This document shows positions 1-4,992 of a stretch of 64,000 nucleotides of DNA, piece by piece. The translations under genes and the position numbers were made by a program. A model generated the notes under the pieces. The model made no database searches. It was not told the DNA's origin and saw only the letters and a program-made list of their open reading frames with translations. Source of the DNA: Flavobacteriales bacterium UBA958. GTDB taxonomy: Bacteria; Bacteroidota; Bacteroidia; Flavobacteriales_D; Crocinitomicaceae. Numbering within the stretch: the first letter of the stretch is position 1; each line of letters begins with the position of its first letter. The stretch covers positions 14,139 through 78,138 of the forward strand of contig DBCM01000070.1 in NCBI GenBank assembly GCA_002293045.1. The letters run 5' to 3'.

Positions 1-134
1 TTGAAATCAAACTTTTGGTAATACTAACGATTTGGTATGTTATGAAAGGTTTGTTGCTTACAAAAATAAGTTACCGTCAATGGTTATTGACAATACAAGT
101 ATGAAACTAACTACAAGCATTTAAAACGATAAAA

Positions 135-680
135 ATGATTGACGAAAATGAAAAAGACTTTTTGAAATTCTACATGGAGCAAACATGGGAAGAAATGCGC
201 CATATTGAAAACATGAGAGAAAGAGTGACAATTCTTGTCGTCACAGTCGCTTCAGCAATTGCGGGATTCATTATTCAGCAGAAATTTTCAATTGAAACAA
301 AACCTTTCGTTTGGTTTGTTATTATCCTTGGTGTTTTTGGTCTTTTAATGACACTTAAACTCTTTCAAATTCATCAAATGTCTCAAAAACGACTGAACAA
401 ATGGTATATTTATTTGGAAAGCTTTTGTGGAAATGATCCAAAAATATTAAAGCTACGAAGACAAGCTGATGTGGAGAACAAAAAAGATTTCTTTTACATC
501 GTTAAAATTCCTCACAATTATTTTTGGAGTGCTATTCATCTTTTCATCTTTGGGTCTGGCTTCTTTTTACTTACAATGTATCCAAAACCAACTTCGACAA
601 GAATGGAACGTCATTGCATCCATTCAACAATTTCGACAAGCATAAATAAAACAATCGTTAACATAAGTAAAATAAAATAA
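135..680 (+). CDS. small integral membrane protein (3 predicted TM helices); partner of the downstream TIR-like gene
   Basis: 181-aa ORF with hydrophobic helices VTILVVTVASAIAGFII, FVWFVIILGVFGLLMTL and FWSAIHLFIFGSGFFLL. An amphipathic charged N-terminus (EKDFLKFYMEQTWEEMRHIENMRER) precedes TM1. The TAA stop at 678-680 lies 1 nt before the next ATG. No family recognised. Confidence 0.6.
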   Translation: MIDENEKDFLKFYMEQTWEEMRHIENMRERVTILVVTVASAIAGFIIQQKFSIETKPFVWFVIILGVFGLLMTLKLFQIHQMSQKRLNKWYIYLESFCGNDPKILKLRRQADVENKKDFFYIVKIPHNYFWSAIHLFIFGSGFFLLTMYPKPTSTRMERHCIHSTISTSINKTIVNISKIK

Positions 681-681
681 T

Positions 682-1251
682 ATGGCAAATAGAACTGGAA
701 ACTACACTGCATTTTATGTAGCTGAACCATTCAACGAATCGAATCTTGGAGCAAATGCAACAAGAGACTTCGTTACTTACAACCAGCTTAAAGCATGGAA
801 AGGGCTTGATTCTTCATTCCCCTTTGTTGATTCCCATGCAAAGAATTATAATGTTCGTGAAAGCAGTAATTGGGAGACAACATTAAAACCTAGACTTCGT
901 GACCGACTTAACATGTCAAAAAATATCATTCTTGTTCTAAGCTCGATTACAGTAAACTCAAGAGCATTAAGAGAAGAAATTGACTGGGGAATAAATACCT
1001 GCGGACTACCCATTATCGTGATATATCCAGAATACAAGGAAAAGAGCGATATAATAGATTGCGACAATAAAGAAATTAAACAACAGATAAGAAATCTTTG
1101 GAACAAATTACCAATTTTCAGAGACTCTATGAGCAAGGTTCCAACAATTCATATTCATAATAACAAAGCATTAATAGAAAAAACATTAAAAGACCCAGAC
1201 TTCAATGTTGCAACTAAATGTAACGCGGGTTTGTTTCACTACCCATGTTGA
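682..1251 (+). CDS. TIR-like domain protein (DUF1863 / ThsB-like family)
   Basis: N-terminal NRTGNYTAFYVA, then YNQLKAWK..FPFVDSHAKNYNVRESSNWETTLKPRLRDRLNMSKNIILVLSSIT.NSRALREEIDWGI...GLPIIVIY. This is the pattern I associate with MTH538/DUF1863 TIR-like proteins (Thoeris ThsB, plasmid Tir proteins). A Glu sits in the REEID segment where ThsB has its catalytic Glu. Motif recognition only. Confidence 0.6.
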   Translation: MANRTGNYTAFYVAEPFNESNLGANATRDFVTYNQLKAWKGLDSSFPFVDSHAKNYNVRESSNWETTLKPRLRDRLNMSKNIILVLSSITVNSRALREEIDWGINTCGLPIIVIYPEYKEKSDIIDCDNKEIKQQIRNLWNKLPIFRDSMSKVPTIHIHNNKALIEKTLKDPDFNVATKCNAGLFHYPC

Positions 1252-1414
1252 TATTCAGGCTGATGCGTTCATTCTGTATAGGACTGACAAGCTCTTGGAA
1301 GCCAAGTACCAAATGGCTGTAACACGGGTTTTACGTCAGGCGAGGCGACGCGCAAACTTGGAGCATTTTTCGTCTATTCAAGTTTAATGAATAAGTTTTA
1401 TACTACACACAAGT

Positions 1415-1445
1415 AAAGCCGAAGGACATCTTTAGGCTTTTTTTA
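1415..1445 (+). terminator. putative rho-independent terminator downstream of the TM/TIR pair
   Basis: aaagccgaaggacatctttaggcttttttt: an AAGCC/GGCTT stem (extendable with GAAG/CTTT) followed by a T-run. Confidence 0.45.
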
Positions 1446-1496
1446 AGCATTACAATTTTCTCCCAAAATAATTAATCCTGACTCAATTCAGAGGAA

Positions 1497-1541
1497 TTTG
1501 TACTTTTTAGTACATGTACTAAAGATTTTGGTATTTGTACT
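1497..1541. promoter_or_regulatory. cluster of GTAC-centred palindromes / TTTGTACT direct repeats (candidate operator)
   Basis: TTTGTACT occurs at 1497-1504 and 1534-1541. A perfect 12-nt palindrome AGTACATGTACT lies at about 1509-1520, and there are four GTAC cores within 45 nt. The cluster sits in the intergenic region upstream of ORF 1683. Confidence 0.25.
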
Positions 1542-1682
1542 ATTTTATTATTGGCATTGTCGAGTCAAACTTCAGTAAACATTTGATATTAACTTGATTC
1601 AGTATCGTTCAGCCATTTTACAATGAAATATTTCTTTGACCTCATTCATTAATTTTGCGCCGAATCAACATTTAGTGATAAT

Positions 1683-2411
1683 ATGAATAATCTTTTGCCA
1701 TCTGTAACTTGTGTAGCTTGTCATTGTTCTGATACGATGCAACAACCCACTTCCACATCAAATATCTTGAATTACACTCAGAGTTTTGGTGCTATCCATA
1801 ACAATCTGCTAACTCTTTATGGCGAAACATTTCCCGGTTTGATCGGAACCCATGAACAAATTTGGCAATTTATGACTACTGAAACAACAAAGGAGTTAAA
1901 TACAGTCAATCTTCCGGGCGCGAATTTTATTTCGTTTTCAGATGCAAATTCATATGGTGTGAACATTAAATCTTCGCTGAACTTATATCTGAAAGATTTA
2001 CAAAGTCAAGGAATAATTTCACCTACAATCTATGAATTAGTTGATACCATATTATTCATTATCAAAAATTTTGAAAATTCAATGGATGTTTCGTTCAGAT
2101 TAAACTCATTCATAAATAAACATAGTCTAAATCCATCCCTTACACAAAATGATAAAATATCTGTTCTTGGCGCAGCAAATGTTGGACTTTATTCAAACTA
2201 TTTTTGGGATTTTGCTTTGAACAATAGTGATGATCCTTACCATCAAATTGCCTTTGATCTAAATGCCACTGGGAATTTATATAAAATAAAATGGGCAGAT
2301 TTGATTGGTTTTGTTGTCGGGGCAGGAGTTGGAATTGCAGCGGGTCCACTAACAGCAGTATCAACAGGCATAGCCTTGGGAGGTTTTGCTTCAAAGATTT
2401 TTGGAGAATAA
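1683..2411 (+). CDS. hypothetical protein with C-terminal glycine-zipper membrane segment
   Basis: 242-aa ORF (alternative start at M19). The C-terminus GFVVGAGVGIAAGPLTAVSTGIALGGFASKIFGE is a GxxxG-rich hydrophobic tail. No family recognised. Confidence 0.45.
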   Translation: MNNLLPSVTCVACHCSDTMQQPTSTSNILNYTQSFGAIHNNLLTLYGETFPGLIGTHEQIWQFMTTETTKELNTVNLPGANFISFSDANSYGVNIKSSLNLYLKDLQSQGIISPTIYELVDTILFIIKNFENSMDVSFRLNSFINKHSLNPSLTQNDKISVLGAANVGLYSNYFWDFALNNSDDPYHQIAFDLNATGNLYKIKWADLIGFVVGAGVGIAAGPLTAVSTGIALGGFASKIFGE

Positions 2412-2450
2412 TCTCTATATTTGGTTGTATAACCATCTAATACATAAAAA

Positions 2451-3137
2451 ATGAAAAAAATATTCTTCTACTTTTCATTAATTGCAGGCTTTAATGTTCT
2501 AGCTCAAACTGATGTACCAAAAGAATCCGGAAGCGAGATTTATTGGAACATTGGGGCGCATTCACCCTCCATTCAACCGCTCAATGACCTCATTGTCGCC
2601 GCAGGATTTCCAATGCTAAAAACCACCAGTTATTCGGCCGGATTCTCTTATGTGCAATTCAGTAAAAAGGATATCGTTACAGAGCAAGAACTATTCTATT
2701 ACAATTTACAGTCAAAAAATGATTCATTAACATCCAATATGAGAAATATAAGTTATGGCTTCTCATTATTTGGGTACCGGTACATGGATCGTAAAAAATT
2801 AAAAATGTTTTCAACAGTCGGACTTATTTTTAATAATTCCCGAGTAAAAGTGTTTGAAAATCTATCAAACGATAATTCCGTGGCTTCCTATTTATCAGGA
2901 ACTGCCAATCAACATGAAATGAACACATTTAACTACAACTTAAATGGAACTACCCACATCAATTATTACATTTCTTTTAAGAAATCTACAACACAGCTTA
3001 TTTTAGGAGCACGAGCAGCATACTATTTACCACTAACTACCACAAAATGGAGTATGGATAATGCAAAACTTAACAATGGCCCAAAAATTAACCCCGGCGG
3101 TTATGCTGTACATTTAAGTATTGGCATGACTTTGTAG
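2451..3137 (+). CDS. secreted hypothetical protein, possibly outer-membrane beta-barrel-like
   Basis: Signal peptide MKKIFFYFSLIAGFNVLAQ. Aromatic/alternating hydrophobic pattern through the body. No family recognised. Confidence 0.4.
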   Translation: MKKIFFYFSLIAGFNVLAQTDVPKESGSEIYWNIGAHSPSIQPLNDLIVAAGFPMLKTTSYSAGFSYVQFSKKDIVTEQELFYYNLQSKNDSLTSNMRNISYGFSLFGYRYMDRKKLKMFSTVGLIFNNSRVKVFENLSNDNSVASYLSGTANQHEMNTFNYNLNGTTHINYYISFKKSTTQLILGARAAYYLPLTTTKWSMDNAKLNNGPKINPGGYAVHLSIGMTL

Positions 3138-3185
3138 TAAAACAGTCGCTCATTTGAAATACAGTTAGCATAGCCGATCAATACG

Positions 3186-3305
3186 GAGCCGAAACCGAAA
3201 CATCCAAGATATACCTCCGAAGCTTGGCGGAGGTGGATTCCGAAGTTATTTTCTTAACAGCACCCTGAGTAGTCCGAAGGACATATCGAAGGGTGCGGAG
3301 GTGGT
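3186..3305 (+). repeat. structured intergenic repeat, copy A (long form)
   Basis: Shares gccgaaaccgaaacatccaag ... tccgaagttattttcttaacagCACCCTGAGTAGTCCGAAGGACATATCGAAGGGTGcgg with copy C (5263-5346). Core hairpin GCACCCT...AGGGTGC with an inner GTCC-GAAG-GAC stem. Carries an extra cctccgaagcttggcggagg hairpin insert. Confidence 0.7.
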
Positions 3306-3426
3306 TGCCACAAAAACTTCACGTGCCTTTGGTGATGTTAAGTTTAAAAAAATCTTTAATTACGCTGCACTACCCCTCCACGATTTGACCTGCGTTTAGT
3401 TTGAAGTACCCCCTTAAACGTATGTT

Positions 3427-4992
3427 ATGAAAATTCTACCCGCTATTTTATCTGCCCTTCTTGCTTGCTCCGCATGGGCGCAACAAATTTCTTACCTGTC
3501 CTTAGATCACAACAATGTTTCGTGTTTGCTCGACGACGAGGGTGGATTTTTTAACAACTTGCCATCCGGGTTGGCGGGTTATGAAGTCCCTAAACAGAGT
3601 GGATTATCCACCATTTTTGCGGGGTCGTATTGGATGGGAGCGCAAGATGTGAATGGCGCCTTGTACATGTCTGCGGTGAAATACAGTGCGGGAGGCAGCT
3701 GGAGTGCGTTTCATGGTGGACCCATTTCTACTACCCAAGCATACAATACCTTAGCCTACAGCAACCAATACCAAGACGCCATCTGGAAGGTAAGCAAGGC
3801 CGAAATATTGGCCCACCAAGCCAATGTGCAAAACCCAGGGTATGTAGTGCCCCCTGCCATTGCCAATTGGCCAGGCAACGGGGATACCTCACTCGGAATC
3901 GCAGCACAACTTGCTCCCTTTATAGACCTCAACGGGAATGGTCTTTATGAACCATCCCAAGGAGATTATCCCGATATCCGCGGCGACGAGGCCGTTTATG
4001 TTATTACGAACGATGAATCGTATCTACCCGATGGTAACCAATTGGGTATTGAAGTACACGCCATGTTTTACCAATTCCAAACCGCAAACTACCTGAACAA
4101 TACGACCTTTTTGACCCTGCGGGTGTACAACCGAAGCAACCGCACATATTACAATTTTCATGAAGGCCTTTACCTCGACTTTGACTTAGGCAATTATTCC
4201 GATGACTACATCGGATGTGATCCCACCAACCGATTATTGTATGCGTACAACGGTGATGACCTTGACGAATCGGACGGAGGACAACTAGGATACGGTGCAA
4301 ACCCGCCCTGCCAAGGTGTATTGTGCCTTTCACATCCCTTAGAAAGCGCGGGAAGATTAACCGGTGCGATGGATGCAGGCATGAGCACCAGCTTTGATAC
4401 AACGGCATGGTTGCTCATGAACGGACAAAACAGCGATAGCACCAATTGGATGAATCCCTTAACGAATACCAGCACCCATTTTCTGTACGACGGTAATCCC
4501 AACGTACCCAATACATGGAATGAAGCGGCCAGTAATAACAACCCAAGTGACCGAAGGGGAATGTTAAGCATAAAAGAAGCGATCTTACCCCAAGGAGAAA
4601 GCTTTTGCGCTGATTTTGCCTTCATTTACAATCGTTCCGGAAACCGCCTACAGAATGTGCAACAGAACATCTACACGGCAGGGGCCTTACTGACGTGGTA
4701 TGCGCAAGATCAAGTTTTCCCCTGTCAATCGCAGGCGTTTAACAGCCTAACAGAATCAGATCAGGCACTCGAACCCTTACTCCTTTATCCCAACCCGACC
4801 AGTCAACAGCTCACCGTCGCATGGACATCCAAAGACGCTTCTTGCATTGAAATCTTTACCCTACACGGTAAGCTGGTAGAACGCATTCCCATACATGAAC
4901 CCAAGGCTCAAACCCTCGATGTTAGCGGCCTATCGCCGGGCATGTACCTAATCCGTGTTGAAGAACAAACGCAATGCTTACATAAAGAGTAA
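3427..4992 (+). CDS. T9SS-secreted protein (type A C-terminal sorting domain); short paralog of the giant proteins at 40262-44422 and 60507-64000
   Basis: Signal peptide MKILPAILSALLACSAWAQ. C-terminal LLLYPNPTSQQLTV...IEIFTLHGKLV...GMYLIRV is typical of T9SS CTDs. The N-terminal module (NNVSCLL..GYEVPKQSG..IFAGSYWMGAQDVNGALYMSAVKYS) and the central YLDFDLGNYSDDYIGCD...YNGDDLDESDGGQLGYGANPP motif are shared with the two giant paralogs. Confidence 0.8.
   Translation: MKILPAILSALLACSAWAQQISYLSLDHNNVSCLLDDEGGFFNNLPSGLAGYEVPKQSGLSTIFAGSYWMGAQDVNGALYMSAVKYSAGGSWSAFHGGPISTTQAYNTLAYSNQYQDAIWKVSKAEILAHQANVQNPGYVVPPAIANWPGNGDTSLGIAAQLAPFIDLNGNGLYEPSQGDYPDIRGDEAVYVITNDESYLPDGNQLGIEVHAMFYQFQTANYLNNTTFLTLRVYNRSNRTYYNFHEGLYLDFDLGNYSDDYIGCDPTNRLLYAYNGDDLDESDGGQLGYGANPPCQGVLCLSHPLESAGRLTGAMDAGMSTSFDTTAWLLMNGQNSDSTNWMNPLTNTSTHFLYDGNPNVPNTWNEAASNNNPSDRRGMLSIKEAILPQGESFCADFAFIYNRSGNRLQNVQQNIYTAGALLTWYAQDQVFPCQSQAFNSLTESDQALEPLLLYPNPTSQQLTVAWTSKDASCIEIFTLHGKLVERIPIHEPKAQTLDVSGLSPGMYLIRVEEQTQCLHKE

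Follow-up and report, generated by a model that had tools for sequence, protein, structure and literature searches.

The window analysed here is a stretch of 64,000 nucleotides (nt) from Flavobacteriales bacterium UBA958 (contig DBCM01000070.1, positions 14,139 to 78,138). Two open reading frames (ORFs) on the forward strand at its left end, ORF1 (135..680) and ORF2 (682..1251), form a putative Thoeris-like two-gene operon. ORF1 encodes a 181-amino-acid (aa) protein predicted to lie in the inner membrane with three transmembrane (TM) helices. It is a putative effector and appears to be a divergent member of the 8xMP/RipA-like superfamily. ORF2 encodes a 189-aa TIR protein of the ThsB type, which is the putative sensor and signal synthase. 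The spacing between the two genes is 1 nt: the stop codon TAA of ORF1 occupies 678–680, the single base 681 follows, and the start codon ATG of ORF2 occupies 682–684. The two ORFs did not arise by chance, because both proteins are conserved in many metagenomes. An earlier sequence-only reading had described the pair as a candidate anti-phage module with a single-nucleotide gap and a hairpin/T-run terminator behind it, and both of these features were recovered.

The 5′ leader of the pair (1..134, forward strand) is intergenic and is the probable promoter region of the operon, although no promoter was established there. Its sequence is 100% identical across eight independent contigs. In L001, a longer contig of the same organism, the leader is part of a 472-nt gap that follows a Por_Secre_tail gene. 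This gap upstream of the pair is intergenic and holds no extra ThsA-like gene, so nothing of the module is cut off by the window edge. Downstream, an intrinsic-terminator-like hairpin lies on the forward strand at 1411..1444, approximately 165 nt past the ORF2 stop codon, and ends in TTTTTTT (1438–1444). Its minimum free energy is −9.1 kcal/mol (z = −2.46 against shuffled sequences). A simple consensus terminator scan missed this hairpin because its stem is interrupted. The 3′ untranslated stretch as a whole (1252–1445) folded no better than shuffled sequences (z = −0.6), and positions 1–3500 gave no Rfam match.

The ORF2 protein matched the Pfam family PF08937 (ThsB_TIR) with E = 2e-23 and 83 bits (cut-off 21.2), and the PADLOC model ThsB1 (PDLC00421) over its full length with E = 2e-69. 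Its best relatives of solved structure were PDB entries 9uv0, a ThsB of Bacillus amyloliquefaciens (1.6e-77), and 3hyn (1.6e-71). The DUF1863/ThsB-like TIR signature recognised in the sequence-only reading was thus confirmed. The 9uv0 sequence agrees with the one printed in Table S1 of Yirmiya et al. for BaThsB, the type II Thoeris ThsB of B. amyloliquefaciens Y2. ORF2 is 64% identical to the TIR domain of BaThsB. BaThsB makes His-ADPR, a conjugate of ADP-ribose (ADPR). This signal switches on the TM-Macro effector ThsA/ThsC, which has 297 aa, two TM helices and a Macro domain.

The Glu of the REEID segment in ORF2 is E99 (codon 976–978). It aligned with the catalytic Glu of ThsB, as had been proposed from the sequence, and did not vary when ORF2 was aligned with BaThsB, B. 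cereus ThsB and type VII and type X TIRs. A second active-site residue, Y8 (codon 703–705), is nearly invariant; B. cereus ThsB and the classical NADase TIRs have Phe at the equivalent position. The Tyr-Glu configuration is the hallmark of ThsB subfamilies that, in the data set of Shi et al. (2024), were seen only with TM-Macro effectors, and it has been described as ill-suited to plain hydrolysis of nicotinamide adenine dinucleotide (NAD+). Relatives of ORF2 with 60–67% identity on Bacillus, Klebsiella, Serratia and Citrobacter plasmids adjoin Macro-domain proteins of 278–283 aa, which is the arrangement of type II Thoeris. Judged by its sequence, ORF2 is a complete, full-length ThsB TIR protein of the type II-like class.

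ORF1 has three hydrophobic segments at approximately 31–49, 56–79 and 130–148. The 30 N-terminal residues are highly charged (5 K/R and 9 D/E), and the 50-residue loop between TM2 and TM3 contains 10 K/R. This composition fits a topology in which the N-terminus is intracellular and two segments face the cytoplasm. The AlphaFold2 (AF2) model of ORF1 was built on a 137-sequence alignment and, like the other AF2 models described here, is a monomer. It had a predicted local distance difference test score (pLDDT) of 91.5 and a predicted template modelling score (pTM) of 0.79. In the model, two 45-residue helices (4–48 and 53–97) run from the cytoplasm through the membrane, helix 103–118 is cytoplasmic, and helix 127–147 is the third membrane helix. 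Both the hydrophobic segments and the model agree with the sequence-only description of a small protein with a charged N-terminus and three hydrophobic helices. The Ser/Thr/Lys-rich tail is unstructured in the model and is variable or absent in relatives.

The family alignment showed that the first 150 residues of ORF1 are strongly conserved and include many invariant polar residues. R22, E25, R28, K75 and W131 are nearly invariant even at 20–25% identity. The polar residues with the highest conservation fall within approximately 80 cytoplasmic residues, which could form a ligand site within an oligomer. The sequence-only reading had held that ORF1 has no room for a sensor domain. The absence of SIR2, Macro and SLOG domains was upheld by Pfam, but the statement that there is no room is unsafe in view of these conserved cytoplasmic residues. 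The Pfam search of ORF1 also gave no SLATT match at E ≤ 1 and no DUF2270 (PF10028) domain, and searches of PADLOC, NCBIfam and PHROGs gave no match at all. Comparison with three TM-Macro proteins by hidden Markov model and BLASTP showed no similarity, and a truncated type II ThsA was ruled out on this ground.

PDB sequence searches returned nothing meaningful for ORF1 or its family profile, nor for a true 8xMP protein or the corresponding 8xMP profile. Foldseek searches of the ORF1 and true-8xMP AF2 models against PDB, and of the ORF1 model against BFVD, returned only generic helical bundles with E > 0.1. No solved PDB relative of either family was therefore found, by sequence or by fold. One BFVD match of the ORF1 model was to a viral DUF2270 protein, and it was non-significant (E = 0.65, template modelling score 0.48).

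Close homologues of ORF1 (n = 77) share 52–92% identity with it, are approximately 150–200 aa long, and come mostly from freshwater metagenomes. The named genomes that carry them are Sediminibacterium, Chitinophagaceae/Chitinophagales, Ignavibacteria and Flagellimonas lutimaris. The family is a small one of Bacteroidota and Ignavibacteriota. Searching one genome per species across 185,579 species gave only five matches, and this patchy distribution looks like one of horizontal acquisition.

The linkage of this family to TIR genes was counted in 14 further loci with a family member of at least 52% identity, excluding nine near-identical contigs of the window's own species. In 13 of the 14, the next gene after the ORF1-family gene is a PF08937 gene in the same orientation, at a distance of −11 to +13 nt. 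The conservation of the two genes as neighbours, on which the sequence-only reading depended, thus held with a single exception, the locus L020. Three clades of partner TIR can be distinguished: clade A, which is type II-like, shares 70–100% identity with ORF2, clade B consists of 183-aa proteins with 30–38% identity, and clade C occurs in locus L019. The ORF1-family sequences cluster by the clade of their partner TIR. In other taxa, the neighbours of family members include type I restriction-modification (RM) genes, a large methyltransferase, a RiboL-PSP HEPN protein, Mrr and further TIR proteins.

One locus carries TIRs of two clades. In L011 (1822–4002; Ignavibacteria metagenome-assembled genome, JBHELA010000423.1), one effector gene lies between ThsB genes of clades A and B. 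The type II-like ThsB gene is upstream, separated from the effector gene by a small GIY-YIG-like ORF; the clade B ThsB gene is directly downstream and is followed by a gene for a 962-aa methyltransferase-like protein. L011 appears to be a system with two sensors. More distant relatives of ORF1, with approximately 25% identity, were found beside other large proteins. One is convergent with the gene of an 891-aa TIR-NB-ARC-TPR protein (L025, 2688–5945), and another, on a Streptomyces plasmid, is divergent from the gene of a DUF4062 protein (L032, 2792–4453). Linkage to TIR-like domains may be a feature of the whole ORF1 superfamily.

The ORF1 protein gave a weak match to PF24838 (8xMP), with 20.5 bits and E = 4.5e-4. 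The same match was found in 33 of 36 ORF1-family members, the best with E = 2.1e-5, and all of these matches fall short of the 30-bit threshold. A profile search of 1.84 billion representatives, with relatives counted at E ≤ 1e-3, yielded 538 relatives that are typically approximately 150 aa long. Among 137 sampled superfamily relatives, 53 matched 8xMP, and weak matches were seen to SLATT_1 (2), SLATT_3 (2) and DUF4231 (7). A few superfamily members matched the PADLOC 2TM or PycTM models. PF10028 (DUF2270) was matched by neither ORF1 nor any of the 36 family members and 137 superfamily members. One protein from the representative search, P0102 (358 aa), consists of a SieB superinfection-exclusion domain (PF14163, 1.4e-27) and a C-terminal ORF1-superfamily domain. 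This fusion ties the ORF1 fold to another abortive-infection membrane protein, SieB.

An hhalign comparison of the ORF1 superfamily profile with a 47-sequence 8xMP alignment gave a probability of 90.7% with E = 1.2e-6. The alignment spans 141 columns and stays in register from the N-terminal helix as far as TM3. The AF2 model of a true 8xMP protein has helices at 27–68, 78–117, 124–131 and 146–171, in the same order as in ORF1. From sequence and model, ORF1 is best placed in the 8xMP/RipA-like superfamily as a divergent branch, and is not a PF24838 member by that family's own threshold.

True 8xMP proteins were also found with TIR genes. Yirmiya et al. (2025) predicted a '3TM' class of putative Thoeris effectors, and the TIRs listed for it are of the SHSW type. 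On the Synechococcus elongatus plasmid pIITB6_1, a TIR gene whose product is 60% identical to a '3TM' TIR overlaps by 4 nt the gene of a 172-aa protein (P0225; L030 3390–3908). This protein is a bona fide 8xMP member (E = 3.9e-39), and NCBI names it 'RipA family octameric membrane protein'. A second true 8xMP protein occurs on hundreds of contigs, and its gene overlaps with a ThsB_TIR gene that lies upstream. In these true 8xMP systems the TIR gene comes first, which is the opposite order to ORF1–ORF2. A Nodularia 8xMP member showed no TIR linkage. The '3TM' class is probably TIR-linked PF24838 8xMP, an equation drawn from these plasmid and metagenome examples and not from the paper's own gene identifiers.

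The pair was compared with the known systems, among which types V–XI of Thoeris were verified by Yirmiya et al. (2025). Two general features of Thoeris are present: a ThsB-type TIR with the catalytic Glu, and an effector gene conserved beside it in the operon. Type II Thoeris is the closest on the TIR side: ORF2 belongs to the clade of BaThsB and has the same Tyr/Glu active site, and both systems are two-gene operons with a membrane-spanning effector. The Tyr-class ThsB of type II, the class of BaThsB and EcThsB2, is therefore present, whereas its effector with two TM helices and a Macro domain is replaced by the shorter ORF1, which has three TM helices and no Macro domain. On the effector side, the '3TM'/8xMP type resembles the pair. 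Its effector has approximately 170–180 aa, three TM helices and the same predicted helix layout, is translationally coupled to the TIR gene, and shares remote homology with ORF1 over the whole domain. It differs in that ORF1 scores below the Pfam threshold and is encoded first, and in that ORF2 is of the type II-like DUF1863 kind and not of the SHSW type.

Type V Thoeris (ThsF, DUF2270/PF10028), which uses 3'cADPR and is enriched in Bacteroidota, resembles the pair in its small three-TM effector and in its phylum. ThsF also has no classical nucleotide-binding domain and was modelled as a ring with charged pockets between protomers. Unlike ThsF, the ORF1 family does not match PF10028, and its sole link to that family is the non-significant BFVD match described above. 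Type VII Thoeris (ThsH, SLATT), which uses canonical cyclic ADPR (cADPR), and the 2TM effectors of CBASS and Pycsar share with ORF1 an N-terminal helix, a TM hairpin and a cytoplasmic helical extension, whereas ORF1 has no SLATT match and adds a third TM helix. The 2TM-1TM-TIR system of the P2/P4 hotspot consists of three genes, unlike the single 3-TM protein and TIR seen here. No third gene of that kind was found: the upstream gap is intergenic, the neighbours are not conserved, and ORF1 has no PADLOC match. Francisella tularensis RipA is the superfamily namesake in NCBI naming and a cytoplasmic-membrane protein with two cytoplasm-facing functional regions. It is tied to LpxA stability and intracellular growth, and not to TIR proteins or phage defence.

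The mismatch with the canonical Thoeris types noticed in the sequence-only reading was therefore real, as ORF1 has no Macro, DUF2270 or SLATT domain. The label 'unclassified' needs some correction. PADLOC does not call the pair as a system, and none of the domain definitions for the verified Thoeris types covers it, but ORF1 is remotely related to PF24838, and the TIR-linked true members of that family are probably the '3TM' class.

We lean towards the view that the pair is a Thoeris-like abortive-infection system that works by signalling, with an ADPR-derived signal causing an oligomeric membrane effector to open or cluster. In this model, ORF2 would detect phage infection and convert NAD+ to an ADPR-derived signal. 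The signal would probably be His-ADPR or a close relative, because the active site of ORF2 has Tyr and Glu and the protein is 64% identical to the His-ADPR-producing BaThsB. ORF1 would form a homo-oligomer in the inner membrane with its N-terminal helix and TM2–TM3 loop in the cytoplasm. The signal may bind these two cytoplasmic, membrane-proximal segments, whose charged residues R22, E25, R28 and K75 have the highest conservation, probably between protomers. The assembly would then open or cluster, and the membrane would be breached or depolarised, which would halt phage replication.

The computed support for this model consists of the domain identities, the catalytic residues, the topology and fold predictions, the tight co-occurrence with ThsB and the remote homology to 8xMP. 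Effector clades track TIR clades, and some related loci have RM, HEPN, Mrr and other TIR genes as neighbours. Precedent comes from ThsF (DUF2270) and ThsH (SLATT), two small TM effectors that respond to TIR signals although they lack a classical nucleotide-binding domain. Models of both are rings or filaments with basic inter-protomer pockets that are the likely ligand sites (Yirmiya et al., 2025). We favour the chain from ThsB through a His-ADPR-like signal to an ORF1 oligomer because of the analogy to ThsF and ThsH and because of the TIR clade. A shared small molecule is favoured over a shared protein interface because one effector family pairs with three TIR clades.

Several observations weigh against this model. 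Locus L020 has no recognisable TIR and carries a 205-aa protein of unassigned family in its place, and two other family loci carry truncated ThsB genes beside an intact ORF1 gene. ORF1 has no recognisable nucleotide-binding motif and falls below the PF24838 gathering threshold (20.5 against 30 bits), and hhalign with the narrow ORF1 family profile alone gave a probability of just 10.7% against 8xMP. The '3TM' class was outside the 30 operons assayed by Yirmiya et al. (2025), and Francisella RipA acts on LpxA and not in defence. The pair also lies outside any defence island in this genome, where its neighbours are secreted proteins of the type IX secretion system (T9SS) and housekeeping genes. 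The defence-island context raised by the sequence-only reading was therefore seen for some relatives, near RM, HEPN, Mrr and TIR genes, but not here. None of the computable findings that the same reading had named as damaging, such as membership of ORF1 in a housekeeping family, was made, although the superfamily does bear the name of the non-defence protein RipA.

An alternative is that ORF1 is a membrane sensor or anchor for phage-induced envelope events that activates ORF2 by contact, after which ORF2 depletes NAD+ with no diffusible signal. The tight translational coupling suits a stoichiometric complex, ORF1 has no recognisable ligand-binding domain, and its distant relatives adjoin large TIR-NB-ARC-TPR and DUF4062 proteins that are seemingly self-sufficient. 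We nevertheless regard direct gating as unlikely. The closest characterised TIR, at 64% identity, is a signal synthase that works through a separate effector, and the Tyr-Glu active site is described as poor for plain NAD+ hydrolysis. The pairing of three ThsB clades with one effector family is easier through a shared small molecule, and the ORF1 relatives weakly match SLATT and 2TM effector families. Another arrangement resembles a toxin–antitoxin pair, in which ORF1 is a holin-like toxin restrained by ORF2 and is freed when a phage interferes with ORF2. Such a pair is suggested by the layout of the two-gene operon, whose first gene encodes a small membrane protein and overlaps or abuts the second. 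The catalytic Glu is invariant in all partner TIRs, however, which points to enzymatic activity and not mere binding; the true 8xMP systems have the TIR gene first; and the loci with truncated ThsB keep an intact ORF1 gene, which would be lethal were ThsB an antitoxin. This reading is quite improbable.

A role outside defence is of similarly low probability. ORF1 might modulate an envelope or lipid A enzyme as Francisella RipA does, with the TIR as a metabolic or regulatory partner. The superfamily bears the RipA name, RipA has two functional regions accessible from the cytoplasm and interacts with LpxA, and the context of the window is not a defence island. Against such a role stand the patchy, horizontally-acquired-looking distribution (five matches in 185,579 species), the strict linkage to ThsB, the occurrence of several relatives in defence-gene neighbourhoods, and the clustering of the ThsB partner with a proven immune TIR. 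We give almost no credence to a decaying remnant, in which ORF2 would be an orphan ThsB left after the loss of a TM-Macro ThsA and ORF1 an unrelated neighbour. It is true that ThsB relatives normally pair with TM-Macro proteins and that PADLOC detects ThsB alone. The pairing nevertheless recurs in Sediminibacterium, Ignavibacteria, Chitinophagales and Flagellimonas, with three TIR clades and with conserved spacing, and both ORFs are intact and highly conserved; the synteny already contradicts a remnant.

The kind of system proposed here, a TIR with a signal-activated effector, is already known, and the '3TM' class was predicted by Yirmiya et al. (2025). What appears to be new is the ORF1 effector branch, which Pfam thresholds and PADLOC miss, the fact that this branch, and not TM-Macro, accompanies a type II/His-ADPR-like TIR clade, and the tie between TIR-associated 3TM effectors and the RipA family. 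Our literature search found no paper that links Thoeris with RipA or describes the ORF1–ThsB pairing; Table S1 of Yirmiya et al. was covered in part, and an earlier listing there is possible. If the pair is functional, a His-ADPR-type TIR clade reported as TM-Macro-specific would have switched to an unrelated membrane effector whose conserved core spans approximately 150 aa. The pair would then serve as a minimal model for the reading of a TIR signal in the absence of a known binding domain. It would also add to the annotation of defence systems in freshwater Bacteroidota, in which current tools detect an orphan ThsB and nothing else.

The NCBI naming implies that Francisella RipA, an LpxA-interacting virulence factor, is in one family with TIR-coupled putative defence effectors. 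Tying the predicted '3TM' Thoeris class to the named Pfam family 8xMP/RipA gives a hint at the function of Francisella RipA. We speculate, tentatively and with more doubt than confidence, that the RipA/8xMP superfamily comprises widespread minimal ligand-gated oligomeric membrane effectors. These would read TIR-made ADPR conjugates through a pocket formed by cytoplasmic helices close to the membrane and would need no Macro, SLOG or other nucleotide-binding domain. If this were true, ORF1 would be the smallest known receptor-pore for a His-ADPR-type signal, and Francisella RipA would be suggested to be a nucleotide- or metabolite-sensing membrane oligomer.

The DNA around the pair showed a low GC content of 31–37% up to approximately 3250, against 43–51% further on. 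The AT-rich block of the sequence-only reading is therefore real. It is not specific to the pair, because it runs on for at least 7 kb upstream in L001. In the window, the pair is flanked by T9SS-secreted proteins and by housekeeping genes such as mtnA and metK. Neither protein was found in viral contigs or phage records, so there is no pointer to a phage-borne origin.

Two further ORFs lie downstream in the same low-GC block. The first (1683–2411) encodes 242 aa and ends in a glycine-zipper-like segment, GFVVGAGVGIAAGPLTAVSTGIALGGFASKIFGE. The second (2451–3137) encodes 228 aa and has a signal-peptide-like start. Neither had a Pfam or PHROG match, and both were ruled out as components of the system, as they are not conserved beside the pair in other taxa. 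A 60-aa ORF (1205–1387) overlaps the 3′ end of ORF2 and is annotated as a gene on some public contigs (L001 and L006). It sits in a locally GC-richer stretch (1252–1400), in which no RNA-structure signal and no Rfam match were found, and it is probably spurious.

A 42-nt direct repeat brackets the module. Its downstream copy (1504..1545, forward strand; L001 8483–8524) holds the perfect 18-bp palindrome TTTAGTACATGTACTAAA and matches the upstream copy at 38 of 42 positions. The upstream copy lies 138–179 nt to the left of the window start (L001 6801–6842). No further copy was found in the window or in related taxa. The two copies are 1682 nt apart in L001, and the chance expectation of such a repeat is 0. 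The repeat could be a duplicated operator common with the next gene, or the scar of a cassette insertion.

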